The notes beneath the pieces are model-generated. The model worked only from the letters and a program-made list of their open reading frames with translations, was not told the DNA's origin and ran no database searches. DNA of 64,000 nt from an uncultured Syntrophaceae bacterium (GTDB taxonomy: Bacteria > Desulfobacterota > Syntrophia > Syntrophales > UBA2192). Shown in pieces: positions 27,284 to 52,060 of the stretch. The stretch lies in the NCBI GenBank assembly GCA_964547985.1, contig CAZJPV010000005.1, positions 7,755 to 71,754 on the forward strand. The letters are read 5' to 3'. The position numbers and the translations under genes are program-made. The first letter of the stretch is position 1. Every line of letters starts with the position of its first letter.

Positions 27284-27316
27284 GAAGAAGCGGTCACAAT
27301 GAAAGCCGCAAAGAAA

Positions 27317-28416: not shown

Positions 28417-28515
28417 ATCTTCACGCAGGCCAGTATATTTCTTTATTGAAAATGCCTGAAAAATGTGGATGATAGAGCTTCTTCAGGGAAATCCAGGGAT
28501 ACCCGGAGGGGAATC

Positions 28516-28971: not shown

Positions 28972-28994
28972 TTGGGGCAAGCGACCGGTAGAAT

Positions 28995-29516: not shown

Positions 29517-29771
29517 CGACCCCGGCGGGTACAAAGGCCCCACAGGCCGCTCCCAAGGCGGCTTTTTTATTTGATACATCCGCGCCCCGAAATCCTGCGG
29601 ATTTCGAGGTACCCCGTGGAAAAATCAGATCAAAAACAGAAATCATCTTGAATAATTTCGCATTATGAGATAACGATTCATTATTTTCACCCGCGACGAA
29701 CAAGCGTTCATCGGTCGGCGGTTAAAGTTCATTCCTTCTCATGATGGTTCGCAAAAAAAAGGGGGGGATCC

Positions 29772-30782: not shown

Positions 30783-31438
30783 GGGACCCCGGGTCAAACA
30801 ACCAAAAGCCCGCCAGGGTATGTCAGCATTATCGTCACGAAAGATCCCGCCTCCGTCTGCCAGCCGACCGTTTTACATTTGAACATCCCTGTATTATCCT
30901 CCCGAACGTAAAGATTGTGAGTTACGAAACCTCAAAATAATCATTTTAAATTATGATTTATAATCAATATGATATGCCGTTTTCATAGAAAAAATATGAT
31001 ATTTTTAGGTCTCAGACAAATTTGTCGAAAGGGATACAGGCAGGGTCCACATAACAATTCGTTTTGATAATGTTTTTGCAGTTTGAGGTCAAAATATTCG
31101 ACAATTGTTGCCTCACCGCAAATGCCGACTCAGGGAGGTCAGGAAGGGATATAAAGAAAATGCATAATGTATTCAATATGTTGATAAATTTTTTTACATT
31201 CGGCACGGTAACTGCATTGAATAGAGGTGTAAAATTGTGATTAAGAACGCTCTTTACAGATCAAATAGACATTATCTCGCCCCGGCCCTACCGACCGTTA
31301 AGGTTGACAGTTTCCCCCTCCTTTACTGTTGGCCTTAAAATGGGGTTTTCCCCTCCTCCTTTGCCCCGTGGTAATCGGTAGGGCAGGGCTGTTTCTGGGG
31401 TCAGGTAAAAACGATTTTCCCTTCATCAGCCATCGCTC

Positions 31439-35117: not shown

Positions 35118-35160
35118 GGCTCAGGGCACAACGCACAGGACAGAGGAAGAAACAAAGAAA

Positions 35161-35194
35161 GATCGGGGAGCGCCTCCTCGGTCTTTTTCTTTTT
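35161..35194 (+). terminator. Rho-independent terminator after dksA
   Basis: 10-bp stem (gatcggggag/ctcctcggtc, two G-U pairs) with a 3-nt loop, followed by TTTTTCTTTTT. Confidence 0.6.
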
Positions 35195-35204: not shown

Positions 35205-36518
35205 CTACTCGGGGATTTTCCCGGTGAGGAGCATCCCGATCTGCCCGTCGAGCCTTGCAGCGATGGCCTTGATCTCCTCCGTGTCGGTCGATAGGAATCT
35301 CAGCAAATCGAAGCGGTTAAGACGTTCGGCTATCTGGATGAAGACCGGGCAGATGCCGAGGATCATGGCCGAGGCCACCCTCTCCGTCCATGCCTTTCCG
35401 GAGAAAAGGGGGGCAATCCCGCCACCGAAGAGTTGATAGAGGCGGGTCTCGATACCCGGTGCCGACGGGTAGTCCTTCTCATCGATGGAAGCCCCTGCGG
35501 CGGCGAGGGCCTCGATCGTGTTCAGTGCCTCCCGGAGCGGACGGTCCTCGCGAAGACCGTATCCCGCGGCCAGGGGATCGAGCCCGAGTTCCAGACACCT
35601 CTTCAGGAGGGGAAGGGCATCCTCGGACTTGCGTGAAAGAGAGATCCATCCGCCGTGATCCATCAGGAGGAACCCGTCTTTTTCCTTCTCCCCTCCCTGT
35701 CTTCGGAAGGCCGCGTAGGTCATGCAGGGGCAGGGGCAGTGGTAGCAGGCCCGGTTTCGCCCGAGTTTCCCACGGAGCGCCCCGGCAGACTCGCCGCCGT
35801 CGGCGATTCTCTTCAAAACGGGGACAAACCCCTCGGTTTTCATGGCTCCCGAGTCTCGCAACAGCTTTTCCGTCGTCTTGGACAGAGCCGGGTGATCCTC
35901 GCGGTGGGGCAGTCCCCCGATGCCGTTGAACAGGACGGCCTTGAGGTTCTTTGCCGCCATCCGGGCGGCGAGTCCAACCCTGTCGAGACTCCCGTGACTG
36001 CCGATGGAGGCCGATGCGAAGGGCGAGCTTCGATCCGCCGCCGGCCCCGTGACGATGGAGGCGCGGAATCCGGGTGCACTTCGCCTCAAGGACTGAACAA
36101 TTTCAGGTACCGGACGATCGGAGGTCTCTTGGAGCGGGACGATGGCGATGGAGCCTCGCCCGATATGGATAGCGCAGGGCTGTTCTGTTGCACCGCGGAT
36201 GACAAGAAAATCCAAACCGGCACATTTCATCTCCGGACCAGTCCGGAGCATGAAGGGCACGTGGCAGAGATGATCGTACAGGGGGGACCTGAACGTGGCG
36301 ACGAGAAGCGATGACGCCGGGGCGAAACTTCCCGTCAGTGGCCCCGTCCCAAAAACGAGGGAGTCGCTTTCATACTGGGTAAGGAGCCAGGCGCTCATGG
36401 ACGCCCCAACGAGATGTTTCCGGATCGCCTCTTCCTCGAAGTCGACCGTGTAGGACGACCGCAGGGTCAGGTCAACGACGCCGATTTTGCCGTTATAAAA
36501 GAAGGGGAAGAGTTTCAT
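35205..36518 (-). CDS. Short, divergent aldehyde:ferredoxin-oxidoreductase-family paralog (437 aa)
   Basis: AFOR_N-like N-terminus (GKIGVVDLT..., FGTGPLTGSFAPAS, CAGLDFLVIRG). A compact Cys cluster ACYHCPCPC. The C-terminal domains are much shorter than in the 611-aa AOR at 45617. Confidence 0.6.
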   Translation of the reverse strand: MKLFPFFYNGKIGVVDLTLRSSYTVDFEEEAIRKHLVGASMSAWLLTQYESDSLVFGTGPLTGSFAPASSLLVATFRSPLYDHLCHVPFMLRTGPEMKCAGLDFLVIRGATEQPCAIHIGRGSIAIVPLQETSDRPVPEIVQSLRRSAPGFRASIVTGPAADRSSPFASASIGSHGSLDRVGLAARMAAKNLKAVLFNGIGGLPHREDHPALSKTTEKLLRDSGAMKTEGFVPVLKRIADGGESAGALRGKLGRNRACYHCPCPCMTYAAFRRQGGEKEKDGFLLMDHGGWISLSRKSEDALPLLKRCLELGLDPLAAGYGLREDRPLREALNTIEALAAAGASIDEKDYPSAPGIETRLYQLFGGGIAPLFSGKAWTERVASAMILGICPVFIQIAERLNRFDLLRFLSTDTEEIKAIAARLDGQIGMLLTGKIPE

Positions 36519-37980: not shown

Positions 37981-38442
37981 TTATGCGTTGCGGAGCAGGT
38001 AGATCTCCCGCCTGCACGACGGGCACGTTTCGAGCGCCGTCAGGACGTTTGCCGGCTCTGTCTGGAGCCTTCCGAAGACAAATTCCTCCACGGGCACGGC
38101 CACAAAGAACCGGCCGCAGGCCTCGCAGCGCTTGGCGTTTTCGACCACGTTTTCCCCGATGGCCGCCTCGCGGAGCTTGCGGATCAAGTCCCGGCAGCTC
38201 ACCCCCTGGGGGCAGACGTCGGTGCCGCTGTTGCACTCCGTGCAGTACCAGATGTTTTTGTCCTCGACGATGTTTTCGCCCGTGAGCGTCTTCTTGATAA
38301 TGCCCCGGGGCGACATCTCGATGCCGAAATTCACATACATCTCCGCCATGGGACAGGCGGCGACACAGCGGCCGCACTCGACACAGCCTAGGGCCCCTGA
38401 AACTTGCTTCGCTTCCTCGATCTTATCGTGCCGTCGCTTCAT
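37981..38442 (-). CDS. Small Fe-S protein, HdrC-like, with a C-terminal Cys-pair ribbon
   Basis: CVECGRCVAACP and CTECNSGTDVCP, followed by CEACG...CPSC. Confidence 0.6.
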   Translation of the reverse strand: MKRRHDKIEEAKQVSGALGCVECGRCVAACPMAEMYVNFGIEMSPRGIIKKTLTGENIVEDKNIWYCTECNSGTDVCPQGVSCRDLIRKLREAAIGENVVENAKRCEACGRFFVAVPVEEFVFGRLQTEPANVLTALETCPSCRREIYLLRNA

Positions 38443-40474
38443 AGCGCTCCTTTTCCACGCTTACGGCGCAGACCTTGTATTCGGGAGTCTTGCAGGCCGG
38501 GTCGAGCACCGGGTTCGTGAGCCTGTTGGCCCTCGCCTCGGTGAAGTGGAAGGGGGCGAAGATGCTCCCCTTTGCCACGCGATCGGTGATCTTGGCCGTC
38601 GTCACGATGCTCCCCCGCCGGGAGCTGACTCGAATCCTCTCCCCCTCGCGGATGCCGAGCGCGGCGGCATCGGTGGGGTGGATCTCCACGTAGGCCCACT
38701 CGATCTCGCGGTTGAGAAAGGGCGAACGCCGCGACATGGTCCCCGTGTGGTAATGGGCGAAGACGCGCCCCGTGTTGAGATAGTAAGGGTACTCCGAGTC
38801 GGGCTTTTCCGCAGGCGGCCTGTAGTCGGGGATGACGAACCGGCCCAGCCCGCGGGTGAACTTCTCGCCGTGCAGAAAGCGCGTCCCCGGGTGGTTTTCA
38901 TCGGGGCAGGGCCACTGCAGTCCTACGCGCTCCAGGCGGTCGAAGCTCACCCCGGCGTACGCCGGGACGAGATGGGCATATTCCGACATCACATCGGCGG
39001 GCGAAGGGTAGTCGAAGGCGAGTCCCAGGGCCTTCCCCAGGAGGCAGAGGATCTCGAAGTCGCCCTTCGCGGCTCCGGGCGGGTCGATGGCCTTGTGAAG
39101 GAGCTGGAAGCGCCTCTCCGTGTTTGTGTAAGTCCCGGTCTTTTCGGCAAAGCAGGCTCCCGGTAGGACCAGGTGCGCGAATCTCGCCGTTTCCGTCAGG
39201 AAGATGTCCTGGACGACCAGGAAATCGAGCCTCTGAAGGGCCTCCATGACGTGGTTCACGTCGGGGTCGCTCAAGCAGGGGTTTTCGGCCATGATGTACA
39301 GGGCCCGGATGTCCTTTCCCGCGGTATTGATGAGCTCCGTCACGGTGAGCCCCGGTTTGTCAGAGAGATCTGTTTTCCAGGCCTTCTGAAACTTCTCCCT
39401 TACGGCGGGGTCGGACACGCCCTGGTAGCCGGGGTAGAGGTCCGGCAGGGCCCCCATGTCGCAGGCGCCCTGAACGTTGTTCTGTCCGCGAAGCGGGTAG
39501 ATTCCCGAGAAATGCTTTCCCACATGGCCGCAAAGCATAGCCAGATCGCAGATGGCGATCACGTTGGCCGCCCCGCAGGCGTGCTGGGTAATGCCCATGC
39601 AGTAGACGATGGCAGCGTTTTTAGCCTTCGCGTAGGTCTCGGCCACCGCGCGGATGACCGATTCGTCGATGCCTGTTTCCTTCGCGGCCTTCTCCACGGG
39701 CCATGCCTCGAGGAAGGTCTTTAGGTTCTCGAAGTTTTCCGTCCGCTTCTCGATGAAGCCGACATTGTGGAGCCCTTTGTCGCTGATGTGGCGCATCATT
39801 CCCGCCAGAAGCGGGATATCGGTTCCAGGGTTCAGCCTCAGCAGCCTGTGGGCGTTTCGGGCCACCGCTGTTTCCCGGGGGTCGATAACGAACATCTTCG
39901 CTCCCCGGTCGAGGGCCTTGTAGACCTCGCCCATGAGAACGGGGTGAGTCTCGGCGGCGTTGGAGCCTACAAAAACGATGCAGTCGGCGCCGGCAAGATC
40001 AGAGATGGAGTTGGTCATGGCGCCGCTGCCCAGCGTCTGGAGCATGCCCACCGTGGTTGCCGCGTGACAGAGCCTGGCGCAGTGGTCCACGTTGTTGGTC
40101 TTGAAGGCCGCCCGGATGAGCTTCTGGAAGAGGTAGTTCTCCTCGTTGGTGCACTTGGCCGAGGAGAGCCCGCCCACGCTGTCAGGGCCGTATTCCCCGG
40201 CCGTCTCACTAAGCTTCTGCGCCGCAAGGTCGATGGCCTCCTCCCAGGAGATGGCCTCGAAACGGTCACCCTTGCGCAGAAGCGGCGCCGTCAAGCGCTC
40301 GGGGTGATGGACGAACTCGTGGGCGAACCACCCCTTCACGCAAAGGGATCCCCGGTTCACGGGGTTCTCCCGGTCGGGGTAGGTGGCCGTGGCGCGGCCC
40401 TCCTCCACCTTGAGGATGAGCCCGCATCCCGTGCCGCAGTAAGGGCAGATGGTTCGGATAAACTCAGGTTTCAT
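38423..40474 (-). CDS. fdhA: Formate-dehydrogenase-type Mo/W-bis-PGD catalytic subunit, Cys variant
   Basis: N-terminal [4Fe-4S] motif CPYCGTGC...C. Active-site stretch NNVDHCARLCHAATTVG...GSGAMTNS has Cys where FdhF has Sec. 683 aa, uninterrupted. Confidence 0.88.
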   Translation of the reverse strand: MKPEFIRTICPYCGTGCGLILKVEEGRATATYPDRENPVNRGSLCVKGWFAHEFVHHPERLTAPLLRKGDRFEAISWEEAIDLAAQKLSETAGEYGPDSVGGLSSAKCTNEENYLFQKLIRAAFKTNNVDHCARLCHAATTVGMLQTLGSGAMTNSISDLAGADCIVFVGSNAAETHPVLMGEVYKALDRGAKMFVIDPRETAVARNAHRLLRLNPGTDIPLLAGMMRHISDKGLHNVGFIEKRTENFENLKTFLEAWPVEKAAKETGIDESVIRAVAETYAKAKNAAIVYCMGITQHACGAANVIAICDLAMLCGHVGKHFSGIYPLRGQNNVQGACDMGALPDLYPGYQGVSDPAVREKFQKAWKTDLSDKPGLTVTELINTAGKDIRALYIMAENPCLSDPDVNHVMEALQRLDFLVVQDIFLTETARFAHLVLPGACFAEKTGTYTNTERRFQLLHKAIDPPGAAKGDFEILCLLGKALGLAFDYPSPADVMSEYAHLVPAYAGVSFDRLERVGLQWPCPDENHPGTRFLHGEKFTRGLGRFVIPDYRPPAEKPDSEYPYYLNTGRVFAHYHTGTMSRRSPFLNREIEWAYVEIHPTDAAALGIREGERIRVSSRRGSIVTTAKITDRVAKGSIFAPFHFTEARANRLTNPVLDPACKTPEYKVCAVSVEKERYEATAR

Positions 40475-41316
40475 GGCTTCTTTTCCGTGCTGTCGACCCA
40501 GTCGGGCATGTCCTGCCCGGGGCGGGGCTCCTTGATGAAGTCAGAGAGGACGGGGGATTTACGATCCGCGTCGATCCCTGCCTCATAGTTGTAATCCCTC
40601 TTCAGGGCTTCCCGCATCGATAGCTGGAGCGTCATGAGGGGGATGCCTACCGGGCAGGCCTCCTGACAGGCCCCGCAGGCCACACAGGTATCGGAGAGGT
40701 GAAAAGCCCGGATGAGATGGAAGGTGGTCATTTCTGCCGGGACGACGCCGCGCTCGACCCAGACTTCGTCCTCGAGCTTGCAGGGTACGCAGACGCAGAT
40801 GGGGCAGGAATTGCGGCAGCCGTAACACTTGATGCAGCGCCTGAGCTGTTCGGCCCACTTCTCCATGCGTGTGCGGGCATCGCCCTCCAGGTAGGACTTC
40901 ACCCGCTCGTCGGTCAGGGGATCCACGCCCTCCACGGCGCTCCCCGCGTCGAGCTTCTGAGGGTAGGGACGGTTGCAGAGGCATGCCTTCGCCTGGGCGG
41001 AGTCGCAGGCGTAGCCGAGGGTGAGGAGCCTCTCGCGGTCGACCTGGTTTCGCTTGACGAGCTCCACGACGGCCCTCTCGTCGCATCCCCGCATGACGAC
41101 AACCAGCCGCCAGGGCTGCGGCCTCTCCAGCAGGACCGCCCGGGCCATCTTGGCGAGCAGCCACTTGGGCTCGAGCACGAGCTTGTCGATCTCCGCCGGA
41201 GCCGTAAAGACGTGTGGCTGAATCACATCCCAGTAGCCCTTTTTGAGTGCTAGAACGCCGTCGGCTTGCTTCCTCTCGAGGAGCTCTCTCGCTCTCTGTC
41301 TTACCTGTTCCAGCAT
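40471..41316 (-). CDS. Fe-S cluster protein (AsrA/sulfhydrogenase-beta-like Cys pattern)
   Basis: CIKCYGCRNSCPICVCVPC and CVACGACQEACP. The stop overlaps the fdhA start (4 nt). Confidence 0.6.
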   Translation of the reverse strand: MLEQVRQRARELLERKQADGVLALKKGYWDVIQPHVFTAPAEIDKLVLEPKWLLAKMARAVLLERPQPWRLVVVMRGCDERAVVELVKRNQVDRERLLTLGYACDSAQAKACLCNRPYPQKLDAGSAVEGVDPLTDERVKSYLEGDARTRMEKWAEQLRRCIKCYGCRNSCPICVCVPCKLEDEVWVERGVVPAEMTTFHLIRAFHLSDTCVACGACQEACPVGIPLMTLQLSMREALKRDYNYEAGIDADRKSPVLSDFIKEPRPGQDMPDWVDSTEKKP

Positions 41317-41357: not shown

Positions 41358-41786
41358 TCACTGTTTTACGGGCACCCATGCCCCCATCGAGGGCAGGCCC
41401 TCGAGCTCCCTGTAAAAGCCCAAAATCGTTTCCACGTACTGGTGCCACTCGTGGGTCGTGCCGAAGCCCAGCAGCAGCCGGTTCCCGCCGATGCCCGTCG
41501 TGTCGAGGAGCGTCTTGAGAAGCTCCAGACGCTTGAGGGCAGGGTGGTTGGCGTCGTTGAAGCGGCACCCGCCGACGTGGCAGCCCAGGACGGCCACCCC
41601 CGTTACCCCACTGGCGAAGGCCCGTATCACCAGGTCGGGTTCGACGTAACCCGCGCACTCCACCGGGATCACCCGGAAAGATACAGGCAGCTCGATACGC
41701 TGTCGCCCGGCGGCGTCTGCCCCGAAGAGGCCGCACCAGCGGCATGCGAAGACGAGGATTTTCACGTTGTTTGAATCGGCGGACAT
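41358..41786 (-). CDS. mvhD: MvhD-like (methyl-viologen-reducing hydrogenase delta subunit family) protein
   Basis: ILVFACRWCGLFGADAAG ... VIPVECAGYVEPDLVIRAF ... GVAVLGCHVGGC matches the FlpD/MvhD pattern. Confidence 0.85.
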   Translation of the reverse strand: MSADSNNVKILVFACRWCGLFGADAAGRQRIELPVSFRVIPVECAGYVEPDLVIRAFASGVTGVAVLGCHVGGCRFNDANHPALKRLELLKTLLDTTGIGGNRLLLGFGTTHEWHQYVETILGFYRELEGLPSMGAWVPVKQ

Positions 41787-41787
41787 G

Positions 41788-43494
41788 TCAGCGTACCTCC
41801 CGGAAGGCCCGCCGTATCATCTGGCAGACGGCCCGGTCATTGAGCTCGGGCATCTGCATGGCCCCGTTCGGGCAGACGGAGACGCAATTGCCGCAAGCCT
41901 TGCAGCGGATCTTGATGACACGGCTCACGGAACGATTTCCCATGCGTTGGAGCCTGCAGGCCCCGTAAGGGCATACGGCCATACAGTTGCCGCATCCCGT
42001 GCAGGCATCTGAGTTTACGCTTGCGTGGCCAACCTTCTGGTCCGGCATGCGGCTCATCGCGAGGGCCGAGACCATTTTCTTCCCGAGGAAGGAGGCCGCC
42101 TTCATGGCCGCCGCTTCGCCCTGGGCGATGGCCTGGTCCGACGAGACGGGCCAGCGGGCCGTCCCGCAGATGAAAATACCGTCATTTAGCGTCTCCACGG
42201 GATGGTTGGGGTAGACCTCTGCGAAGAACCCGTATTTGTCCACGGGGATCTCGAGCATGCGGGCGAGCGCCGCGCTCTCCGGGTCGGCAATGAGGGGCGT
42301 GCTGAGGACGACAAGGTCCGTTTCAATGGTCCGGGTCACTCCCGAGATGGCGTCGAAGACCTGGACCTCGCCGACCTGTCCTTCACCGAGCACCCCGGGC
42401 GGCCGCGCGGCATCGAAACGGATGAACTGGACGCCCTTCTCAAGTGCCTTCCGATAATACGCCTCCAGAATGCTGCCCGGCGTCATGATGTCGCGGTGCA
42501 GGACATAGGCCTTCGCGCCCGGAATCTCGTCGATGATCCGCATGGCGTTCTTGAGGGACAGGGGACAGCAGATCGTGGAACAGTAGGGCCGATCAATATT
42601 TCGCGCGCCAACGCACTGGATGAAGACGGCCGTCCGGCAGGCGGGTTTCCCCGTCGAGAACTGCCTCTCCATCTCCATCTGGGTGATCACGTTTTTGAGC
42701 TTCCCGTAACCATGCAGCCCCTGGGGGAAAAGGATTCGTGCCCCCGTTGCCAGAACGATGGCGCCGACGCGCAGACCGGTTTTTCCTTCGGGACCTGCCA
42801 GGGTGACCTTGAAATCGCCGGCCTGGCCTTTGACGGAAACAACCCTTGTCTTCCCGTAGAAGCTGATATGGTGGTTTCTGCTGACCTCTTCGAGCCGCAG
42901 ACCGATCTTCTCAGAGCCGGATTCTCCGCCGGGATAGGCCTGCGATATGATGTTGAGAAGTCCGCCGGGAGCTGATCCCCTCTCGACGAGGTGGACCCGG
43001 AACCCGAGTCTGGCCAATCCGCAGGCGGCCGAGAGGCCGGCAGGCCCTGCGCCGATCACCAGGGTTTCCTGCTGCAGCCGGACGGTGATGTCTTTCGAAT
43101 CCTGCATGTTCTGAAGCAGCGCGAGCTCCATGTCGAGCTGGCTTGCGGCTTTACGGAAAGCGCCCTCCGGGTCCTTGCGGTGAATCCAGGCGCAACCTTC
43201 CCGCAGATCTACTGTGCGCACATGCCGGAGCTCGGCGCCTTTTTTTACGAGTCCAAGCCGGACGAATTCCATTCTGCCGTATGGGGAGCAGGCGCCGATA
43301 AGGACCTTGCCGATCCCGCGATCGTGAATGGCGGAAAGGGCCCGTTCAACGTCGGAAGCAAGGCATAGGGATTCCGTGATCGTTACGCCATCCACGGCAG
43401 GATCGGCATTGAACCTCTTCCGGATGGACTCCAGATCGATGACCTTACCGATCTCACCGAAGCAGTCGCAGAGAAAGACGGTGACTTTGGGCAT
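41788..43494 (-). CDS. hdrA: HdrA-like flavoprotein 2 (N-terminal Cys-rich domain, FAD domain, C-terminal 2x[4Fe-4S])
   Basis: VIGAGPAGLSAA, FIQCVGARN...YCSTICC, CTGCGNCMAVCP and CKACGNCVSVCP. Confidence 0.85.
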   Translation of the reverse strand: MPKVTVFLCDCFGEIGKVIDLESIRKRFNADPAVDGVTITESLCLASDVERALSAIHDRGIGKVLIGACSPYGRMEFVRLGLVKKGAELRHVRTVDLREGCAWIHRKDPEGAFRKAASQLDMELALLQNMQDSKDITVRLQQETLVIGAGPAGLSAACGLARLGFRVHLVERGSAPGGLLNIISQAYPGGESGSEKIGLRLEEVSRNHHISFYGKTRVVSVKGQAGDFKVTLAGPEGKTGLRVGAIVLATGARILFPQGLHGYGKLKNVITQMEMERQFSTGKPACRTAVFIQCVGARNIDRPYCSTICCPLSLKNAMRIIDEIPGAKAYVLHRDIMTPGSILEAYYRKALEKGVQFIRFDAARPPGVLGEGQVGEVQVFDAISGVTRTIETDLVVLSTPLIADPESAALARMLEIPVDKYGFFAEVYPNHPVETLNDGIFICGTARWPVSSDQAIAQGEAAAMKAASFLGKKMVSALAMSRMPDQKVGHASVNSDACTGCGNCMAVCPYGACRLQRMGNRSVSRVIKIRCKACGNCVSVCPNGAMQMPELNDRAVCQMIRRAFREVR

Positions 43495-43498: not shown

Positions 43499-44713
43499 TT
43501 ATTTCTTCCCTTCCATGATCGAACGGAGCGCGGCCGAGGAGGCGTGAACCGCCGACTCCGTCACATGCGCTGGTGTCATGATGTGGCCGTAGGACTCGAA
43601 TAAACGTGTGACTCGACCTTCCGTCGCCAGTGTGGGGACGGCGTAACCCCGGGGCAGGGCGGGGATGGTCGGCTGCAGATTGCCGTTGAGAATGACCATG
43701 TCGAACTTCCAGATCTCGCGTGTCTGTGTCAGGGTGTCCTCGAATTTCACGGCGATGCCGTCACTGCCGGGCAGGGGATAGATGAGAGAAGGCCGCCCCC
43801 GGACAGCCCGTACACCTTTTCCTTCGATAGCGCGGATTGCGTACCCGTAGTAATCCCGACCGACGGTACGAAGGTCCGTGTAGAGAATGACGCAGTCGAT
43901 GGCAGGGTTTCTGCGCCTGACCCACTGGGCCTGCTTGAGGGCATGCATGCAACAAACAGCCGAACAGTGGGGCAGGAACTTCAGGTCGCGGGCACCGGCG
44001 CACTGGATGAATGCGATATTCCGGGGCACGGCCTTGTTTGAGTGCCTGAGGATGGTTCCCCTGTTTTCGCCCGCCTCAGCCTTCCAGGCCTCGAATTCAA
44101 GCGAGGTCATGATGTCCGGGTGGGTCCCCCAACCATACTCCTTCAGGGGTTCGAGGCTCACCTCGGAGAATCCCGCAGACCATATGACTTCGTCAACCGG
44201 GACCTGGAACCGCGCTTCTTCTCGATCGAAGTCGATGGCCTTCGTGGGGCACACATCCGCGCAGGAGCGACAGTCTCCGCAGCGATCCCGGTCGATGATG
44301 TAGAACGGAGGATAAGCGTGCTCCCAGATCGGCCGGGCGGCCCCCCGCGGACAGGCGTCTTTGCAGCGGCCGCAAAAGATGCATAGCTCGGGGTCGATCA
44401 CTGGTGCTAATTTCAAGATGACGGCTTGGAAGACGTGATGGTTTTTTTCCAGTGATTCCACTCTTGCGAGCGTGTGAACAAAAATGGAGGGGTTTTCCTT
44501 GCAGCGGCGGATCTCCGCCCAGAGGGTGCAAAAAGCGCAGTGGTCCGTTGGATAGTACTTGTCAAGTCTTGCCACAATCCCTCCAAGGTCGAATCCGTTA
44601 TCGACGAGATGGACGTGTTGACCTGCAGCAGCTAAATCAAGGGCTGCCGAGATACCGGAGATACCGCCGCCCATGACGAGAATCGTTCTCTTTTTCGTTT
44701 CCGTTTTTTGCAT
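43499..44713 (-). CDS. hdrA: HdrA-like flavoprotein 1 (FAD domain with inserted ferredoxin domain)
   Basis: VMGGGISGISAALDLA, YPTDHCAFC, CIFCGRCKDACP, CGDCRSCADVCP and FIQCAGARD...HCSAVCC. Confidence 0.85.
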   Translation of the reverse strand: MQKTETKKRTILVMGGGISGISAALDLAAAGQHVHLVDNGFDLGGIVARLDKYYPTDHCAFCTLWAEIRRCKENPSIFVHTLARVESLEKNHHVFQAVILKLAPVIDPELCIFCGRCKDACPRGAARPIWEHAYPPFYIIDRDRCGDCRSCADVCPTKAIDFDREEARFQVPVDEVIWSAGFSEVSLEPLKEYGWGTHPDIMTSLEFEAWKAEAGENRGTILRHSNKAVPRNIAFIQCAGARDLKFLPHCSAVCCMHALKQAQWVRRRNPAIDCVILYTDLRTVGRDYYGYAIRAIEGKGVRAVRGRPSLIYPLPGSDGIAVKFEDTLTQTREIWKFDMVILNGNLQPTIPALPRGYAVPTLATEGRVTRLFESYGHIMTPAHVTESAVHASSAALRSIMEGKK

Positions 44714-44765: not shown

Positions 44766-45467
44766 TTATTCTTCCTCGTCTTCCTTGATCAACCCGTAAT
44801 GCTCCCCCAGCTTCCTCACGCGCCCCTCGAGCCAGTCCATAAAGCCCTCGTCGCGCCCGTGACGGCGCCCATCTTCCTCCTCGAGGCGCATGGCGACGCG
44901 CTTCTCGGGGGGAGGCATCCTTTTGACCTTCTCGTAGACCGTGACGATGGACTTGGGCTTCGTGGGGCATCGCCTCTCGCAGGCATTGCAGCCCGTGCAG
45001 GGGCCCTCGAGGACCACGGGGTATTTGTCCTTCTCGAGCACGATAGCGTCGTAGCGGCAGGCATCGTAACAACGGGTGCAGTCTTCCTGACCCGTCCAGG
45101 CGAGGCAGGTATTGCGGTTGATGAGGGCATTGCCGATGTCGACCTCATCGCGGGAGATCTTTGCGATGGCCCCCGTCGGACATTCCTTGATGCAGGCCAT
45201 GCAGAAGATGCACTTCTTGTGCTCGAGGATAGGGGTGCCGAAGCAGGTGATCCCGCCGGCGAGTCCCGCCGGGTGGATGGCGTCGACAGGGCAGACATCC
45301 ACGCATCGGTAGCAGCGGGCGCAGGTTGCGAGAAAGGATTTTTCCTCGAGGGATCCTGGCGGGCGCGGGATCTCTCTGGCCCCGCTGACCTTAAAGAGGC
45401 CGAACAGGAGGGTCGAGACGGCTCCGCTGACGAGAAGATGGATCGTGTCCCTTCGTGAAAAGTCCAT
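44766..45467 (-). CDS. NapG/MauM-like periplasmic polyferredoxin with a twin-arginine-type N-terminus
   Basis: MDFSRRDTIHLL plus an h-region, then RPPGSLEEKSFLATCARCYRCVDVCP (the NapG signature RPPGA..E..F...C.RC). Three further Cys clusters follow. Confidence 0.75.
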   Translation of the reverse strand: MDFSRRDTIHLLVSGAVSTLLFGLFKVSGAREIPRPPGSLEEKSFLATCARCYRCVDVCPVDAIHPAGLAGGITCFGTPILEHKKCIFCMACIKECPTGAIAKISRDEVDIGNALINRNTCLAWTGQEDCTRCYDACRYDAIVLEKDKYPVVLEGPCTGCNACERRCPTKPKSIVTVYEKVKRMPPPEKRVAMRLEEEDGRRHGRDEGFMDWLEGRVRKLGEHYGLIKEDEEE

Positions 45468-45616: not shown

Positions 45617-47452
45617 TTAGAGGTTGTGTTTCTTCCTGGCCGCGTTGACGTCGGCAATCAGGTAATCGAGACCGCAGGCCTTGAGGGTGGCCTCCGTCGG
45701 GATGCCCTTGGCGTCCCAGCCGAAGAATCCGTATGTGTCGGCTTCCATCTTCTTCTGATCTTCGTCGGTGAAGACGGCGTTCTTTTTTGGTCCTGCGGGC
45801 AGCTTCTCCGCGTACATGCGTTTCGGCAGCCGGTCATCCTTGGAGCTGACGCCCTCGCGGACGTTGAAGACGCGCTCTGCTGTGATGATCCGCTTGGCCG
45901 TCGTCCAGTAGTCCTCCGGTTTCATGGCCCAGCCGCACAGCGGGTTGAGCATGTCGGTGACGATCTTGTCCGAACCGGCGCCCCAGACGAGAATCGAGGT
46001 AAAGGTGCACATGCAGAGCGAGTCGGCCATCGCCGTCATGGCCAGTGCCTTGGAGCCCTGTCCTTCGTGGTGATCGCCGCCGTTCGTGCCCATCGTGTAG
46101 CTGTAGGCACGGATCTTGTCGCCCCGCGGATCGTGGGCCGCCAGTTCCCGGCCCTTTACGACGTTGGCATAGGCCTCGGAGCCCTTGCCGATCTGTTTGG
46201 ACATCTTGGCCACGCCCTGGGCCATGAACTTTCCAGCCTTGCCTTCCTTGTGGGCGATCCTGCGTATCATCTCCATGTAGGTGTCGCCGTCACCCCACTT
46301 GGGTTTCAGGCCGTCGAGGTCCGCAGGCTTCAGGGCACCCTTCTCTAAAGCTTCTGTCACGAAGGCCAGGGTGCCTCCCGTGGAGATGTTGTCGAGACCG
46401 TAGGCGTCGCAGGCCTCGATGAGGGCGATCATCTGGCCGAAGTCCTTCATGCCCAGGTTGGAACCCATGAGCCCGCCGGACTCATACTCGGGTCCCTCGG
46501 CGACGAGACCCTTGTACTTCCCGTCGCGAAGGACGCCCAGCTTCAGACAGTGGGTCGGGCAGTTGGTGCAGGCCGCGTGGCGCTTCCAGAATCTCCGGGC
46601 CGCTTCCTCGCCACCGATATTGACGATGTCGGGGTACCAGGTGGTCTGGAAGTTCTTCGTGATGAGCGAGCCGTGGAGGAAGTGCTTGAGTTCCAGGAGG
46701 CCGCCCGTTCCCCAGCGCTTGATGCCTTCCCAGGCTTCTTTCTGTACGTTGGTTGTCTTGGCGGTTCTAGCGGCTGTGAGGAAATTCGCGCTGTCCACGA
46801 CGGGGACGGCGTACTTGGTGCCCCGCACGGCGAAGCCTTTCAACTTCTTGTTTCCGAACACCGGGCCGACGTTGCTGCGCGACGCGGCGCGGTAACGCTC
46901 GACGATGATGTTGGCCTGAAGCGCCCCGTTCTCGCCGGCCGGGCCGATGACAGCCGTCCGGATGAGAGGATCCTTCATGTCACTGATCATCATCGCATGG
47001 GCTTCTTCGGTGGTCTTGCCCCACATCTTCGAGGCGTCCTTGAACTCTACCTTGTCGTTGACGACGGAAAACCACACGGGCTTCTTTGCGCGGCCCTTGA
47101 TGTAGATGCCGTCCCAGCCGGCCCACTTGATCTCTCCCGCGAGGTGGGCTCCCGTCTCAGCGTGGCTCAAAAGACCCGTGAGGGGGTTCTTGTTGACGAA
47201 GCATGTCCTGTAAGAGACGGACATGGTCCCGGACAGGGGCCCCGGCCCCACGAAGACGAAGGCGTCCTCATCTAAGGGATTCTTGCCGGCCTTGTATTCC
47301 GTCACGGCGTAGTAGGCGCCCAAGCCTCTTCCACCGATGTACTGCTGGAGAATTTCTTCGGAAACCGGCCGTGTCTTGTAGGTCAGTGTGCTGAGGTCGA
47401 TTTCCAGTACCTTTCCGAAATTTCCGCCTTTGGGTGCTGCCATAGTGATCAC
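45617..47452 (-). CDS. aor: Tungsten-type aldehyde:ferredoxin oxidoreductase family enzyme (611 aa), no signal peptide of its own
   Basis: GKVLEIDLST..., YIGGRGLGAYY, GPGPLSGT, ACTNCPTHC and the full-length AOR domain order. Confidence 0.9.
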   Translation of the reverse strand: MITMAAPKGGNFGKVLEIDLSTLTYKTRPVSEEILQQYIGGRGLGAYYAVTEYKAGKNPLDEDAFVFVGPGPLSGTMSVSYRTCFVNKNPLTGLLSHAETGAHLAGEIKWAGWDGIYIKGRAKKPVWFSVVNDKVEFKDASKMWGKTTEEAHAMMISDMKDPLIRTAVIGPAGENGALQANIIVERYRAASRSNVGPVFGNKKLKGFAVRGTKYAVPVVDSANFLTAARTAKTTNVQKEAWEGIKRWGTGGLLELKHFLHGSLITKNFQTTWYPDIVNIGGEEAARRFWKRHAACTNCPTHCLKLGVLRDGKYKGLVAEGPEYESGGLMGSNLGMKDFGQMIALIEACDAYGLDNISTGGTLAFVTEALEKGALKPADLDGLKPKWGDGDTYMEMIRRIAHKEGKAGKFMAQGVAKMSKQIGKGSEAYANVVKGRELAAHDPRGDKIRAYSYTMGTNGGDHHEGQGSKALAMTAMADSLCMCTFTSILVWGAGSDKIVTDMLNPLCGWAMKPEDYWTTAKRIITAERVFNVREGVSSKDDRLPKRMYAEKLPAGPKKNAVFTDEDQKKMEADTYGFFGWDAKGIPTEATLKACGLDYLIADVNAARKKHNL

Positions 47453-48195
47453 CTCCCCTTCTTGGTCTTCACAGAAACGACCCGCTTACCTTCAACGTTC
47501 GGGTAGAACAGGAGGTTTGCGAGATCCTTACCCGCCTCTTCCGGCGTCACAGAACGGTAAGCCATGTTCACGCCGATTCCCACCGGTCGGCCCATGAGGC
47601 AGGGCCCCTGGGGGTTTCCGGCTTGATCGTGGCAGGCCTTGACGCATTGTGGGTCACCGCCGCACAGGTCGCAGATGAGGGGCTGACCCGTGTCGGGGTT
47701 TCCACGGATGTACTTGGCCGGGCAGGCCTCCTGACACTTCATGCACTTGGCGCCCAGACAGATTTTCTCGTTGAGCACAATGCCGTTGGTCTTGGCATCA
47801 CGGGTAATAGATTTGGGTGTGGTCGGGCAGGCCGCGATGCACGGGGCATCGTCGCACTGCCAGCAGATGACCGGTAAGTCGATCATATCCTTGTGCTTGT
47901 AAACCCAGACCCGGGACATCGCGGGCCGGGCGGTTCCGGTGTGGAACAGCGAGCAGGCCAGCTCGCAGCTCCGGCAGCCCGTGCAGTTCTGGCGCTCGGC
48001 GAAGAGGTACTTCTGCGCGTAGGGTGCGGTGCCCGCAACAGCCTGGACCGAGTACTGGGCCTCGGCCTTCTTCGGTACCATACCACCGACAGCAGTCAAC
48101 ACGATGGCACCTCCCGCCGCTGTAGCAGTTCCCCTCAGAAAGTCACGACGAGTCGTTTCCTTCTGGAGGACATCAGGCAGTTTCTTTTCGTCCAT
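47449..48195 (-). CDS. Tat-signal-bearing 4x[4Fe-4S] ferredoxin subunit (DmsB/HybA/DsrO-like), translationally coupled to AOR
   Basis: TTRRDFLRG plus an h-region and AEA cleavage-like site. CTGCRSCELAC, CWQCDDAPCIAACP, CMKCQEACP and CDLCGGDPQCVKAC. ATGA overlap with the aor start. Confidence 0.85.
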   Translation of the reverse strand: MDEKKLPDVLQKETTRRDFLRGTATAAGGAIVLTAVGGMVPKKAEAQYSVQAVAGTAPYAQKYLFAERQNCTGCRSCELACSLFHTGTARPAMSRVWVYKHKDMIDLPVICWQCDDAPCIAACPTTPKSITRDAKTNGIVLNEKICLGAKCMKCQEACPAKYIRGNPDTGQPLICDLCGGDPQCVKACHDQAGNPQGPCLMGRPVGIGVNMAYRSVTPEEAGKDLANLLFYPNVEGKRVVSVKTKKGR

Positions 48196-48324: not shown

Positions 48325-48816
48325 TTACTTCATCTTGCTGGTGTAAACGTAGTCGTTCGACTTCTGGGCCTCGTGGCACTTGATGCACTCATCAATCTTG
48401 CCCTCCTGTTCGACCTTACCGCTGGTTTTGTACTGGGCCCAGAACCAGTCACCGCCCTTGGGGTTGTAACCCTTCACCTTGTACATGACGTCGATGAACT
48501 TGAGCTTTTTGTTTTTGTCGAAATTATCCTGCACGATCATAGAGCCGTCGGCGAACTTGCCCTTCTTGGCCTTGATGGAATCGAAGGCCGTCTGGTTGAC
48601 GTAGGCCGTCAGAAAAGCGCCGTGCGGTTCCGGTCCCTTGTACTGGGCCTCGGTACCGGGCCACATCTTCCAGCTCTGATAATTATTTTTCTGGACGAAG
48701 TTCCAGACAGCCGTGCCGTCGGCCGCCGGACCCTTCTTTGCCTGGGCGAAAAGGATGCCCGACAGGGCAAGGGTGACGGTGAGCACGATGGCGAGAAGGA
48801 GCCATTCTTTTTTCAT
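48325..48816 (-). CDS. Periplasmic monoheme c-type protein (cytochrome-P460-like fold guess)
   Basis: Signal peptide and a single C-terminal CIKCH. The beta-rich body (GDWFWAQYK) resembles P460-domain proteins as I recall them. Confidence 0.6.
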   Translation of the reverse strand: MKKEWLLLAIVLTVTLALSGILFAQAKKGPAADGTAVWNFVQKNNYQSWKMWPGTEAQYKGPEPHGAFLTAYVNQTAFDSIKAKKGKFADGSMIVQDNFDKNKKLKFIDVMYKVKGYNPKGGDWFWAQYKTSGKVEQEGKIDECIKCHEAQKSNDYVYTSKMK

Positions 48817-49249
48817 ATCAGTCTCCTTTCGAAATACACGCGGTCACCCGGAAAAGGGGAATAGACCGTATCTGGCGAATCATACGGATGAAGGGAAGCA
48901 CATTCGCTGAGGATAGCGGATGGGGACGTGAAGTGGCGGCTCGCAGCCGGTGGAGTGGGTCAATGTCGCAATCATCCGGGATCCCTTCGCGAAGGCCTGT
49001 GATACCTCATTTAACGTCGCGCATTGCTCGACAGACGCGATTGTAACCGGCATGGTGCGTTCCCCGGTGGATGGTCTCTGATTGCCCGGACCCTCCTTTA
49101 TCCTCCAGGACTACAAGTACTGAAAGAAAATCGACCGGGAAGCTGAGAGAAGTCGCTGCGCCTTTGGTCTCTCTTTTTTATAAAATATATGATGATCTAA
49201 TATATGAAGTCAAATCAAATTTCTCCAAAAGTAAAATTAAATCAATTAG

Positions 49250-49269: not shown

Positions 49270-49350
49270 CAGGGTTTTCCGTGCAAAATTAAACGGGTGA
49301 TTTACTGGGTCTATCCTGCATACCGATTCCACTGGGAAAAAGGAGAGCAC

Positions 49351-49668
49351 ATGGAAATCAAGTATAAGATTTGGCTGGAGAGGAACGGCCGCGTGATCTT
49401 TGGGCCCGGTCGATTCGAACTGCTGGAGGCTGTCGAGGAATGCCAGAGTCTGAGCGCGGCGGCGAAGAAGCTGAAGATGTCCTACCGGGCCGCCTGGGGA
49501 CGCCTCAGGGCCTCGGAGGACAGGCTGGGCATTCCTCTGGTTGAACTGACCGGCAACCGCCAGGGGATGCGCCTGACGGAAGAAGGAAAAAAGCTCCATG
49601 ATTCCTTTCTCGAACTGGAAAAAAAAATAGACAGGTTGCTCGAGGAATATCAGGGCCGGCTGACGTGA
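49351..49668 (+). CDS. ModE N-terminal-domain-like winged-helix regulator (no Mop/TOBE domain)
   Basis: SLSAAAKKLKMSYRAAWGRL...LVELTGNRQGMRLTEEGKKL parallels the ModE N-domain pattern (SISxGAKxxGISYKSAW...LVExxxGG...LTxxG). AGGAG lies 6 nt before ATG 49351. Confidence 0.7.
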   Translation: MEIKYKIWLERNGRVIFGPGRFELLEAVEECQSLSAAAKKLKMSYRAAWGRLRASEDRLGIPLVELTGNRQGMRLTEEGKKLHDSFLELEKKIDRLLEEYQGRLT

Positions 49669-49775: not shown

Positions 49776-51179
49776 TTGAGGCTCGACTTGGAAAAAGGGA
49801 GTAAGCATTCCGCCGCCGAAGGAAAAAACGCGATCTGGTCCTTCTTTGCATCCGTCAGGCTCACCATTGTCCTGCTCATCGTCATTGCCGTCTCCTCGAT
49901 TTTGGGAACGATCATTCCCCAGCAGGAAGAGGCGCAGAGGATCATGCGTGAGCTGCCCCCCGGGCTCGTCTCTACCCTCCAGTCCCTTCAGCTCTTCGAC
50001 ATGTACCACTCCGTGTGGTTCCTTCTGATGATGGCCCTTCTGGCCGTGAATCTCACCGTTTGTTCCGTGAACCGCTTCCCCCGCACATGGAAAATTTTTC
50101 AGGCCGCCCGATCCGGGGGTGCGGTACGCCGGTTTGAGGGGGATACCGCTGACCGGGTTTTCACGGCCGGGGGAACGCCCGTACAGGTCGCTGAAGGGCT
50201 GGAGAGGATCATCCGCAGGAAATTCGGGAAGGTTCGCCGCGTGGAAGAAAGAGGCGTGATCACGCTCCACGGCGAGAAAGGGGTCTTCTCCTATTTTGGC
50301 GTCTATGTGGTCCATTTCAGTATCCTCGTCGTCCTTGCAGGGGCTATTTTCGGTTCTCTTTCGGGATTCGACGGGTACGTCAACATCCCCGAAGGGGGGA
50401 CCATCGACACGGTGAAGCTCAGGGGCGGACAGGGAACGAAGAAACTCGACTTTGCCGTCCGCTGTGATCGTTTCACGGTGGAGTTTTATGACAACGGCAT
50501 GCCGAGGGAGTTCCGCTCTGATCTCTCTTTTCTGAGGGACGGGAAGGTTGTCCAGGAGGGACCCCTGCGGGTCAACCACCCCATCGAGTTCGGGGGGATC
50601 CGGTTTTACCAGGCCAGTTACGGAAACCAGCCCGGGACCGCTCTACTGACCGTCCAGGACGGTAGGGGCGCGAAGAAGCTTCTGAAAATCTCGGCGGGGG
50701 ATCAATTCGAACTTCCCGGCAGGAAGGCAACCGTTTCGGTGCTCCGCATCGAGGAGAACCTCATGAACATGGGTCCCGCCGTGAAGGTGGGCGTCGTGTC
50801 GGAAGAAGGCGGTACCGCCTTCTGGGTCTTCAGGCATATCCGTGAGATCGAGGAGGCCAACCCCGGGATCACGAAACAGGTGCCGCAATTCAATCCCGGT
50901 CTCTTCAAGCCCTATCTTTTTTCACTGGGAGGTATTGAAAGCGCCTACTTCACCGGGCTTCAGGTGAACACCGATCCGAGTGTCCCCATTGTGGCGGCGG
51001 GGGCGTTCCTCATGGTGGCCGGTTTTATGATCGTCTTTTTATTCTCCCACCGGCGGATATGGGTCCGCCTCGAGGAGAAGGACGGCAAGAGCAGAATCAG
51101 TATTGCCGGCCGGTGCAACCGGGACCCGGTCGGCCTTTCCCGCGACATGGACGCCATTGCGGCGGGTGAACGGAAGTAG
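49776..51179 (+). CDS. resB: Cytochrome c biogenesis protein ResB/Ccs1 (system II)
   Basis: WSFFASVRLTIVLLIVIAVSSILGTIIPQ N-terminal signature, a large periplasmic loop and a C-terminal TM. TTG start, with no upstream ATG before TM1. Confidence 0.85.
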   Translation: MRLDLEKGSKHSAAEGKNAIWSFFASVRLTIVLLIVIAVSSILGTIIPQQEEAQRIMRELPPGLVSTLQSLQLFDMYHSVWFLLMMALLAVNLTVCSVNRFPRTWKIFQAARSGGAVRRFEGDTADRVFTAGGTPVQVAEGLERIIRRKFGKVRRVEERGVITLHGEKGVFSYFGVYVVHFSILVVLAGAIFGSLSGFDGYVNIPEGGTIDTVKLRGGQGTKKLDFAVRCDRFTVEFYDNGMPREFRSDLSFLRDGKVVQEGPLRVNHPIEFGGIRFYQASYGNQPGTALLTVQDGRGAKKLLKISAGDQFELPGRKATVSVLRIEENLMNMGPAVKVGVVSEEGGTAFWVFRHIREIEEANPGITKQVPQFNPGLFKPYLFSLGGIESAYFTGLQVNTDPSVPIVAAGAFLMVAGFMIVFLFSHRRIWVRLEEKDGKSRISIAGRCNRDPVGLSRDMDAIAAGERK

Positions 51180-51211
51180 CTCACGTTGTTCCGTCAGGGG
51201 TCGAACTTTTC

Positions 51212-52060
51212 ATGAATACTGTAATCCTCAACTGGGTCACCTTCGTCTATTTCGGCGCGGCCGTCTTTTATTTCATCCACATGCTCCGCGAAGGCGAGTT
51301 CTGGGGAAAGGCCGCGACCGTCACGGCCTTCGCCGGAATCGCAGCCCAGACGATTGCCCTGGTCGTCCGCTGGGTGGAGTCCTACAGGATGGGCATCGGG
51401 CATATCCCCCTTTCGAATCTCTATGAATCGCTCATCTTCTTTGCCTGGGCGGTCATGCTCCTGTACCTGATCATGGAGTGGAGAATCAAAAACAGGAGCG
51501 CGGGTACTTTTGTAACCCCCTTTGCGTTTTTGCTCATGTCCTATGCATCGATATCGCCGAACATCAGCGGGCAGATTCTGCCGCTGATACCGGCGCTACA
51601 GAGCAACTGGTTGACGAGCCACGTGATCACCTGTTTCATGGGGTATGCATCCTTCGCCATCGCCGCCGGCCTGGGCTTCATGTATCTCGTCAAAGGCGAT
51701 GACGGCGCGCCGCAGAAGGACCCGGCACCATTTTCCCGCCGTTACCTGCCTGCCAGAGATGCGCTCGATGAACTCATTTATCAGTGCGCGAGCCTGGGAT
51801 TTATTTTCCTGACGCTCGGCATCATTACAGGAGCCGTCTGGGCTCACTACGCGTGGGGACGATACTGGGGGTGGGACCCGAAGGAAACGTGGTCGCTCAT
51901 CACCTGGCTCGTCTATGCGGCCATGCTCCATTCCCGCTATGTTCGCGGGTGGCGGGGAAAACAAATGGCTGTCATGGCCCTTGTGGGGCTTGCCTGCGTG
52001 CTTGTTACCTATCTCGGCGTGAATTATCTGCCGGGCCTGCACAGTTACATCCAATCTTAG
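51212..52060 (+). CDS. ccsA: Cytochrome c biogenesis heme-handling protein CcsA/ResC
   Basis: WWD-type motif WGRYWGWDPKETWSLITW and flanking His residues. Confidence 0.9.
   Translation: MNTVILNWVTFVYFGAAVFYFIHMLREGEFWGKAATVTAFAGIAAQTIALVVRWVESYRMGIGHIPLSNLYESLIFFAWAVMLLYLIMEWRIKNRSAGTFVTPFAFLLMSYASISPNISGQILPLIPALQSNWLTSHVITCFMGYASFAIAAGLGFMYLVKGDDGAPQKDPAPFSRRYLPARDALDELIYQCASLGFIFLTLGIITGAVWAHYAWGRYWGWDPKETWSLITWLVYAAMLHSRYVRGWRGKQMAVMALVGLACVLVTYLGVNYLPGLHSYIQS

Follow-up and report, generated by a model that had tools for sequence, protein, structure and literature searches.

The clades into which tungsten-containing oxidoreductases (WORs) are divided were reportedly defined in a 2021 PNAS paper. 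Those WORs whose small Fe-S subunit, WorS, bears a signal for twin-arginine translocation (Tat) define 'Class V', described in 2026 with E. coli YdhYV as the example (PMC13328260). The class has been reported only in WOR clade 41, namely for E. coli YdhYVWXUT and Cetobacterium somerae CsWOR41, and the genomes listed for clade 41 include Desulfomonile, D. gigas and S. fumaroxidans, given by name and with no accession numbers (PMC13328260). Enzymes of the YdhV clade have Cys336 as a metal ligand and lack the second shell of the aldehyde oxidoreductases (AORs) (PMC12096430); the BamB counterpart of this residue is C322. Here, we analyse a 64,000-nucleotide stretch of DNA from an uncultured Syntrophaceae bacterium (contig CAZJPV010000005.1, positions 7,755 to 71,754; hereafter, the window), in which a WorS-type subunit with a Tat signal is encoded next to the signal-less catalytic subunit of an AOR, WorL. 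The window enzyme is predicted to work like a Class V WOR, yet it falls outside the clade to which that class was confined.

The initial annotation of this gene pair had proposed a periplasmic AOR that leaves the cytoplasm by hitchhiking on its Fe-S partner. The N-terminus it quoted for the Fe-S protein, MDEKKLPDVLQKETTRRDFLRGTATAAGGAIVLTAVGGMVPKKAEA before Q (QYS onward), is indeed read from the WorS gene, and both open reading frames lie on the minus strand where it had placed them (Table 1). WorS passes the TIGR01409 Tat-signal model with 25.9 bits (cut-off 16.7), and its TRRDFLRG sequence agrees with the S/T-R-R-x-F-L-K motif. This is followed by a moderately hydrophobic h-region, with a best 19-residue Kyte-Doolittle mean of 1.46 (family median 1.44), and by AxA at residues 44-46, which gives a signal of 46 residues. 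Among the WorS homologues, the uncharged stretch after the twin arginine (RR) has a median length of 20 residues. Initiation at an internal Met39, which would skip the signal, was considered unlikely: Met39 is not conserved, and residues 1-46 are conserved at the protein level.

Loss of the RR motif in orthologues had been named as evidence against export. We found RR-x-[F/L]-[L] in all 116 full-length sequences among the best 120 WorS homologues, at identities down to 47% (the other 4 are N-terminal fragments). An independent set of complete genomic WorS copies, taken from 75 loci, has the motif in 81/81 cases, among them those of two cultured strains, Desulfosarcina widdelii PP31 and D. alkanivorans PL12. 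An alignment of 21 sequences, with identity down to 48%, shows no variation at R16, R17, F19 and L20, and it is this conservation, as opposed to the motif count, that excludes a chance origin of the RR motif. The initial annotation had also allowed for the Fe-S protein being a membrane-anchored subunit that faces the cytoplasm; for a membrane anchor, the h-region of WorS is too weakly hydrophobic. A related possibility is that the WorS signal is left uncleaved and tethers WorLS to the outer face of the membrane, so that the enzyme would not be soluble in the periplasm. Some other Tat-WorS lineages do have longer, more hydrophobic N-termini and linkers, Class V has been called 'membrane associated' (PMC13328260), and basic residues precede AxA in only 32/116 homologues. 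However, AxA is present in 112/116 homologues, and the median 19-residue hydrophobicity lies below the membrane-helix threshold of 1.6 on the same scale. We consider such an anchor highly improbable and, since the enzyme would still be outside the cytoplasm, it would be a variant of periplasmic export and would not contradict it.

Downstream of the signal, all 16 Cys residues of the four [4Fe-4S] motifs are invariant in the 21-sequence alignment, and the protein matches Fer4_11. Its PDB matches are small subunits of solved enzymes: the WOR5 Fe-S subunit (6x6u_B, 3e-29), Aromatoleum AorA (8c0z_C, 1e-22) and 9mqx_E (6e-22). Relative to these, WorS has approximately 60 extra N-terminal residues, 46 of which are the signal, the rest forming a linker to the first cluster motif, as well as a conserved C-terminal tail of approximately 45 residues beyond the stretch matched by WOR5-S (query residues 67-202). 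A search of 1.84 billion cluster representatives gave only six matches below 1e-30 for WorS. The next relatives are proteins of approximately 170 residues that align from query residue ~62, and as most of these nearest outside relatives lack the N-terminal extension, the latter is a lineage-specific addition. Other RR-type extensions occur in approximately 27 of 148 diverse WorS representatives, and Tat targeting of WorS is predicted to have arisen more than once.

WorL contains both AOR domains (AFOR_N, 4e-59; AFOR_C, 7e-94), and its best PDB match is the P. furiosus AOR (1aor_A, 4e-94, 35% identity, 260 bits). The claim that the AOR has no signal of its own is borne out: residue 7 of WorL aligns with residue 3 of P. 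furiosus AOR, leaving no N-terminal extension, and none was seen in 112 aligned family sequences (the window protein included). Residues C292, C295, C299 and C479 align to the P. furiosus cluster ligands C288, C291, C295 and C494, and these four [4Fe-4S] ligands are kept in 111-112 of the 112 sequences. The second-shell Glu313 and His448 correspond to WorL E321 (112/112) and H458 (108/112). With the two domains, the four Cys ligands and the Glu/His second shell in place and no metal-ligating protein residue, WorL is assigned as an AOR in the strict sense. A BamB-type reductase identity was rejected, as BamB (4z3w_A) matches with only 4.5e-41 and WorL has Glu at the position of the Cys ligand.

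The initial annotation had further described an ATGA overlap between the WorS stop and the WorL start. This did not hold, since the four bases at 47452..47449 read GTGA within the junction sequence AAGGGGAGGTGATCACTATGGCA. A GTG start for WorL would overlap the WorS TGA stop, whereas the ATG at 47443 lies 8 nt past a Shine-Dalgarno sequence (GGGGAGG) and 5 nt past the TGA. Translation from this ATG yields the 608-residue product that public assemblies list (P0121, 100% identity, contigs of up to 227 kb), and its N-terminus is in register with 104 of the 112 family sequences aligned. The ATG 5 nt past the WorS stop is therefore the most likely start, and the two genes are tightly packed and probably coupled without an ATGA overlap.

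The pair shares with Class V the combination of WorL with a four-cluster WorS, a Tat signal on WorS and none on WorL, and extra subunits encoded alongside, although these further subunits are assigned only by the conservation of gene order. For both, the predicted role is respiratory, periplasmic and membrane-associated, and Class V likewise has no purified native enzyme or known activity. In contrast, WorL is not the YdhV-like protein of ~77 kDa that marks clade 41. It is 26% identical to YdhV (107 bits), compared with 35% to P. furiosus AOR (260 bits), while YdhV scores 181 bits against P. furiosus AOR; its length is 608 residues versus 700 for YdhV; and at the position of YdhV Cys336 it has Glu321, with the AOR His kept, which sets it apart from the YdhV/BamB branch. 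Placement outside clade 41 rests on this similarity, length and active-site residue as opposed to the 92-clade tree. Similarly, the window WorS is 27% identical to YdhY and has a closer relative in WOR5-S of P. furiosus, which is signal-less (3e-29), and the partner subunits are NapG/NapH-like and HdrA/MvhD-like, in place of the NrfC-like YdhX and the cytochrome YdhU found with YdhYV. The set of NapGH-like and HdrA/MvhD/HdrC-like subunits matches none of the five published WOR classes.

Inspection of the E. coli K-12 locus (L001) shows that YdhY (8852-9478) reads TRLEFLR, where there is one Arg, and then a lipobox-like LLGC, while a clean TRRKF motif is found on YdhX (5346-6014). With a single Arg on YdhY and the RR on YdhX, the textbook Class V example is less canonical than the window signal. 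Among the related loci, one from a Syntrophaceae metagenome-assembled genome (L019) has a solitary AOR-family gene of 728 codons (3090-5276, minus strand) ~4 kb upstream of its cluster, and L024 has a weaker match in a similar place. These ~700-residue homologues were examined as possible clade-41 enzymes and dropped, the L019 gene having no WorS neighbour and a GPEYE Glu motif.

In the fold families of both subunits, the [4Fe-4S] ligands, the Glu313/His448 second shell and the 16-Cys polyferredoxin small subunit, the pair resembles P. furiosus AOR (1aor), WOR5/ASOR (6x1o) and Aromatoleum AorABC (8c0z). These enzymes are cytoplasmic and their small subunits signal-less, unlike the window WorS with its Tat signal and C-terminal tail. 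The distribution of signals is that of the periplasmic [NiFe] hydrogenases, where only the Fe-S small subunit carries a signal and the cofactor-bearing large subunit has none. The proteins themselves are unrelated, and co-export has been shown for the hydrogenases whereas it is predicted for WorS and WorL. By the hydrogenase route, WorS and WorL would assemble with their cofactors in the cytoplasm and be exported together through the Tat system on the WorS signal, which would be cleaved after AEA46. We regard this co-export as quite probable, and every computational check that was run agrees with the hitchhiker proposal, pointing to a periplasmic enzyme.

The WorS-WorL pair heads a conserved 12-gene redox operon that had been overlooked initially and that changes the probable function of the system (Table 1). 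The cluster combines two predicted and conserved Tat substrates (WorS and a NapG-like protein) with a single polytopic NapH-type protein and a group of proteins whose known precedents are all cytoplasmic. No terminator-like site was found on the minus strand in the intergenic gaps of the cluster (before WorS, after WorL or between the later genes), and the hairpin just past the last gene likely marks the operon end. The promoter match is weak, as the count of sigma-70-like sites in the region is no higher than in shuffled sequences. The divergent ModE-like protein hints at a candidate molybdate- or tungstate-responsive regulator, without telling molybdenum from tungsten.

Table 1. Features of the WorS-WorL locus, with positions in the window
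Feature	Position	Strand	Details
ModE N-terminal-domain-like regulator, 123 aa, divergent	49297..49668	+	TIGR00637 6e-15 (below cut-off), PF00126
Sigma-70-like promoter match	49184..49213	-	Upstream of first cluster gene; 10/12 matches
Monohaem cytochrome, P460 / c'-beta family, 163 aa, Sec-type signal	48325..48816	-	PF16694 9.7e-16, CIKCH
WorS-type small subunit, 248 aa	47449..48195	-	Four [4Fe-4S] motifs and C-terminal tail
Predicted Tat signal peptide of WorS, codons 1-46	48058..48195	-	TRRDFLRG; h-region GTATAAGGAIVLTAVGG; MVPKKAEA before Q
WorL, AOR catalytic subunit, 608 aa from ATG, no signal	45617..47443	-	AFOR_N, AFOR_C
NapG-like polyferredoxin, 233 aa, own RR signal	44766..45467	-	NapG PRK09476 2e-21, MauM/NapG TIGR00397 1e-18 (both below cut-off)
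HdrA-like flavoprotein 1, 404 aa, cytoplasmic	43499..44713	-	HdrA2 model positions 137-493, 4e-75
HdrA-like flavoprotein 2, 568 aa, cytoplasmic	41788..43494	-	HdrA2 model 2e-96
MvhD-like [2Fe-2S] protein, 142 aa, cytoplasmic	41358..41786	-	PF02662 2e-32
Fe-S protein, 281 aa, two [4Fe-4S] motifs, cytoplasmic	40471..41316	-	
FdhA-like molybdopterin protein, 683 aa, cytoplasmic, optional member	38423..40474	-	TIGR01591 836 bits (cut-off 666)
HdrC-like two-cluster protein, 153 aa, cytoplasmic	37981..38442	-	HdrC models 3e-14; qmoC 2e-8
WorS-NapH membrane fusion, 438 aa	36515..37831	-	NapH/MauN TIGR02163 3.6e-31, PF12801
Truncated AOR-like protein, 437 aa, cytoplasmic	35205..36518	-	AFOR_N only, 3e-32
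G+C-rich hairpin with T-runs, likely operon end	35156..35188	.	Just past last gene

Both neighbours that the initial annotation predicted to be exported stood up to inspection. The NapG-like protein has its own RR motif, and its signal (RR, h-region and a small-residue site directly before the NapG/NapF-type RPPGA) is present in all 64 orthologues read. The flanking monohaem protein belongs to the Cytochrome_P460 family, has a CIKCH motif and begins with a strongly hydrophobic, Sec-like segment (Kyte-Doolittle 2.61). Genes for this cytochrome occur directly upstream of WorS in the Syntrophales loci only and are absent from the Desulfobacterales and Desulfovibrionaceae clusters; the protein is possibly a lineage-specific periplasmic partner, or else unrelated. 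The FdhA-like protein has no Tat signal and has Cys in DHCARLCH, at the position of the E. coli FdhH selenocysteine. In the NapH-like fusion, a signal-less N-terminal WorS-like polyferredoxin domain (33% identical to WorS) precedes a NapH-type transmembrane core and a C-terminal 2x[4Fe-4S] domain, with hydrophobic segments at 180-260 and 349-369. The start of the truncated AOR-like gene overlaps the stop of this fusion by 4 nt; its product is 22% identical to WorL, keeps CxxCxxxC and has no domain 3. This pairing of a signal-less WorS-like domain with a truncated AOR-like protein (35205-37831) is also found in D. autotrophicum HRM2 and Desulfovibrionaceae loci, and may mirror the periplasmic pair in the cytoplasm without being catalytic.

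We examined the conservation of this gene order by scanning one genome per species for WorS relatives, which gave 75 loci, and mapping the window proteins onto them; denominators are the loci long enough to show the gene concerned. WorL adjoins a Tat-WorS in 73/73 loci. The NapG-like gene is present in 63/65, HdrA-like 1 in 60/62, HdrA-like 2 in 56/58, MvhD in 48/49, the 281-residue Fe-S protein in 47/48 and the HdrC-like gene in 41/42, while the NapH fusion is found in approximately 25 loci that reach far enough. The FdhA-like gene is less constant (34/46), being absent in Desulfovibrionaceae and D. alkanivorans. The loci span five Desulfobacterota orders, Syntrophales, Desulfobacterales, Desulfomonilia, Desulfovibrionales (Desulfovibrionaceae/Mailhella) and Syntrophobacterales (Syntrophobacter), with protein identities to the window down to ~40%. 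Desulforapulum (Desulfobacterium) autotrophicum HRM2 has 11 genes in the same order, the cytochrome alone being missing, and a 6.5-Mb Desulfosarcina contig keeps this order minus two genes, those for the cytochrome and the truncated AOR-like protein. The gene order, the sequence features and their conservation are direct observations. Related Syntrophaceae loci (L006, L008, L009, L012, L014 and L018) contain two tandem Tat-WorS/WorL pairs (e.g. L006 6150-8725 and 10001-12576), 74-85% identical to the single pair of the window and with a P460-type cytochrome gene between them.

In Nap systems, NapG and NapH link a periplasmic enzyme to the quinone pool (PMC4683180). The window proteins share the NapGH architecture: a Tat-signal four-cluster polyferredoxin with RPPGA after the signal, and a PF12801 membrane protein that has four transmembrane helices, CX3CP motifs and, at its C-terminus, a 2x[4Fe-4S] domain. 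Unlike in Nap, no NapA, NapB or NapC genes were found in the cluster, and the NapH-like protein has the extra N-terminal WorS-like domain. One alternative is that the exported WorLS works with the NapG-like and NapH-like proteins as a complete periplasmic aldehyde:quinone oxidoreductase in its own right, and that the HdrA/MvhD/FdhA-like proteins make up a distinct enzyme of the cytoplasm whose genes share no more than location or regulation with the former. Such a division would make use of NapGH as the known quinol-linked module for a periplasmic enzyme (PMC4683180), and would suit the 149-bp gap between the WorL and NapG-like genes, the dispensability of the FdhA-like gene and the divergent arrangement of the two gene blocks in one locus (L067). 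However, the HdrA, MvhD and HdrC-like genes sit between the NapG-like and NapH-like genes, a placement kept in 41-60 loci of five orders at identities down to 40%, so that a shared function is hard to avoid. We consider two separate enzymes unlikely.

The central block of the cluster is reminiscent of QmoABC, whose domain architecture has been described for sulfate reducers (PMC3333476). Both systems contain a pair of HdrA-like flavoproteins together with MvhD-like and HdrC-like modules, a likeness of domain content only; in both, the HdrC-like Fe-S module is tied to a membrane subunit and there is no HdrB or CCG catalytic subunit. No Qmo model was matched in a model search that listed only HdrA models, so the likeness is one of architecture only. 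In contrast to QmoABC, the membrane part is of NapH type as opposed to a dihaem HdrE-type cytochrome b, MvhD and the HdrC-like module are separate proteins, and the genes are linked to an AOR instead of aprAB, with no apr genes in the window or the related loci.

Class II benzoyl-CoA reductase, BamB-I, also has an AOR-family catalytic subunit and a small Fe-S subunit encoded together with HdrA-like and MvhD-like proteins. By analogy with it, or with methanogen Fdh-Hdr-Fmd, the window complex could be entirely cytoplasmic, with AOR-WorS feeding a soluble HdrA-based bifurcating complex and the RR region being a non-exporting remnant or chaperone-binding peptide (compare the vestigial motifs of NarG and NapF). 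The tight and wide linkage of the pair to the cytoplasmic HdrA, MvhD and FdhA-like genes speaks for this, as do the joining of an AOR-family subunit with HdrA-like subunits in class II benzoyl-CoA reductase (PMC13328260) and the second WorS-like domain and signal-less AOR-like protein at the operon end. Against this, the signal is complete (RR, uncharged h-region and AxA) and conserved across copies, whereas vestigial motifs lack the h-region and cleavage site. The cluster also conserves another protein with a Tat signal, as well as a NapH-type protein that is polytopic. Nor is WorL BamB-like by its matches (4.5e-41 to BamB versus 4e-94 to P. furiosus AOR) or its active site, where Glu replaces the Cys ligand; BamB has the Cys ligand and no AOR second shell, while BamC has three clusters and no Tat signal. 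The NuoEFG-like BamGHI genes were not found in the window cluster, and the Bam complex is cytoplasmic. An all-cytoplasmic complex is thus distinctly improbable.

We therefore favour, with moderate confidence, an exported WorLS that would be wired through the NapGH-like module to a Qmo-like cytoplasmic flavoprotein module, for which the cluster encodes both HdrA-like flavoproteins, MvhD, the HdrC-like protein, the 281-residue Fe-S protein and, in many loci, the FdhA-like subunit. WorL would oxidise aldehydes or reduce acids in the periplasm, and electrons would pass from WorL to WorS, then to the NapG-like protein, which would dock on the NapH-type membrane protein and hand them to it. This periplasmic wire is something we would narrowly back; each contact along it is predicted, as are the export it presupposes, the direction of the reaction and the metal. 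Because the NapH-like protein is signal-less, its N-terminal four-cluster and C-terminal two-cluster domains should face the cytoplasm. Periplasmic aldehyde chemistry would then be linked, probably via the quinone pool at the NapH-like subunit, to the cytoplasmic flavin-based module, where HdrA could take or supply electrons. We put forward this last link, from the NapH-like protein to the HdrA/MvhD/HdrC-like module, tentatively and at somewhat less than an even chance. The aldehyde/acid couple lies near -500 mV (PMC13328260) and menaquinone at -75 mV (PMC3333476), so that periplasmic oxidation of aldehydes to the quinone would be strongly exergonic, with protons released outside.

Several observations weigh against the favoured arrangement. 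The NapG-like protein scores 76 bits against an equivalog cut-off of 269, and the NapH-like protein 107-109 bits against 213-234; by these scores, both are relatives of NapG and NapH and not equivalogs. No Tat-specific chaperone gene was recognised in the cluster. An AlphaFold2 model of WorS, built with the 21-sequence alignment, was uninformative and was not used (predicted local distance difference test, pLDDT, 42; predicted template modelling score, pTM, 0.30). The majority of the conserved partners (HdrA, MvhD and FdhA-like) are hallmark cytoplasmic proteins, and a single complex would have to span the membrane through the haem-free NapH-type protein. To our knowledge, the passage of electrons across the membrane by NapH is not understood even in Nap systems.

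Taken to its limit, the arrangement would be one transmembrane supercomplex of all 12 gene products: a periplasmic AOR head made of WorLS and the NapG-like protein, a haem-free NapH-type core, and a Qmo-like cytoplasmic part of HdrA/MvhD/HdrC, with or without the formate dehydrogenase and the truncated AOR-like protein. We regard this assembly, in all its parts taken together, as doubtful. If true, periplasmic conversion between aldehydes and acids at very low potential would be coupled through it both to the quinone pool and to flavin-based electron bifurcation or confurcation in the cytoplasm, and it would constitute an undescribed energy-converting respiratory complex, widespread in syntrophic and sulfate-reducing Desulfobacterota.

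Elsewhere in the window, genes for ResB and CcsA (system II cytochrome c biogenesis) adjoin the operon on the plus strand (49776-52060), followed by a gene for a GH77 4-alpha-glucanotransferase. Genes for two multihaem c-type cytochromes (687 and 359 residues) are interspersed with those for two rhodanese-domain proteins (1439-6387, minus strand), the 359-residue cytochrome having an MtrC/MtrF-like domain match. At about 14000-31000, the G+C content drops from ~0.60 to 0.44-0.53; this stretch, which includes an N6/N4 DNA methylase gene (20276-21118), may be a foreign or mobile island.

This gene neighbourhood had been drawn in the 2009 HRM2 genome paper with no remark on export; the legend of its Figure 4 lists 'Aor5' together with a ferredoxin and an Fe/S protein next to an hdrA/mvhD/fdhBA locus and makes no mention of a Tat signal (PMC2702500). 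That paper excepted, the cluster was not described in the literature found on AOR with HdrA, MvhD, NapH or twin-arginine, and no paper found noted a Tat signal or a NapGH-like pair in it; most subscription journals were not covered by the search. Export of an AOR-family enzyme by hitchhiking is predicted with good computational support and has published precedent, and the bare claim of a periplasmic AOR is a modest extension of published predictions. What is new is a canonical AOR-type enzyme outside the YdhV clade that has the Tat arrangement and lies, near-universally, within a NapGH-like and HdrA/MvhD operon across Desulfobacterota.

In the 2026 WOR classification, Tat-targeted enzymes are confined to the YdhV clade, whose members may be molybdenum enzymes of unknown reaction. 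The family of the window enzyme points to an independent move of a genuine AOR-type active site to the periplasm. The family reaches at least five Desulfobacterota orders and is present in marine sulfate reducers that have been cultured (Desulforapulum autotrophicum HRM2 and two species of Desulfosarcina), and the cluster offers a concrete, genetically tractable case for how HdrA modules join the membrane. A periplasmic enzyme acting on a couple of approximately -500 mV and wired to NapGH-like and HdrA-like modules would be a new low-potential entry of electrons into respiratory or syntrophic energy conservation.

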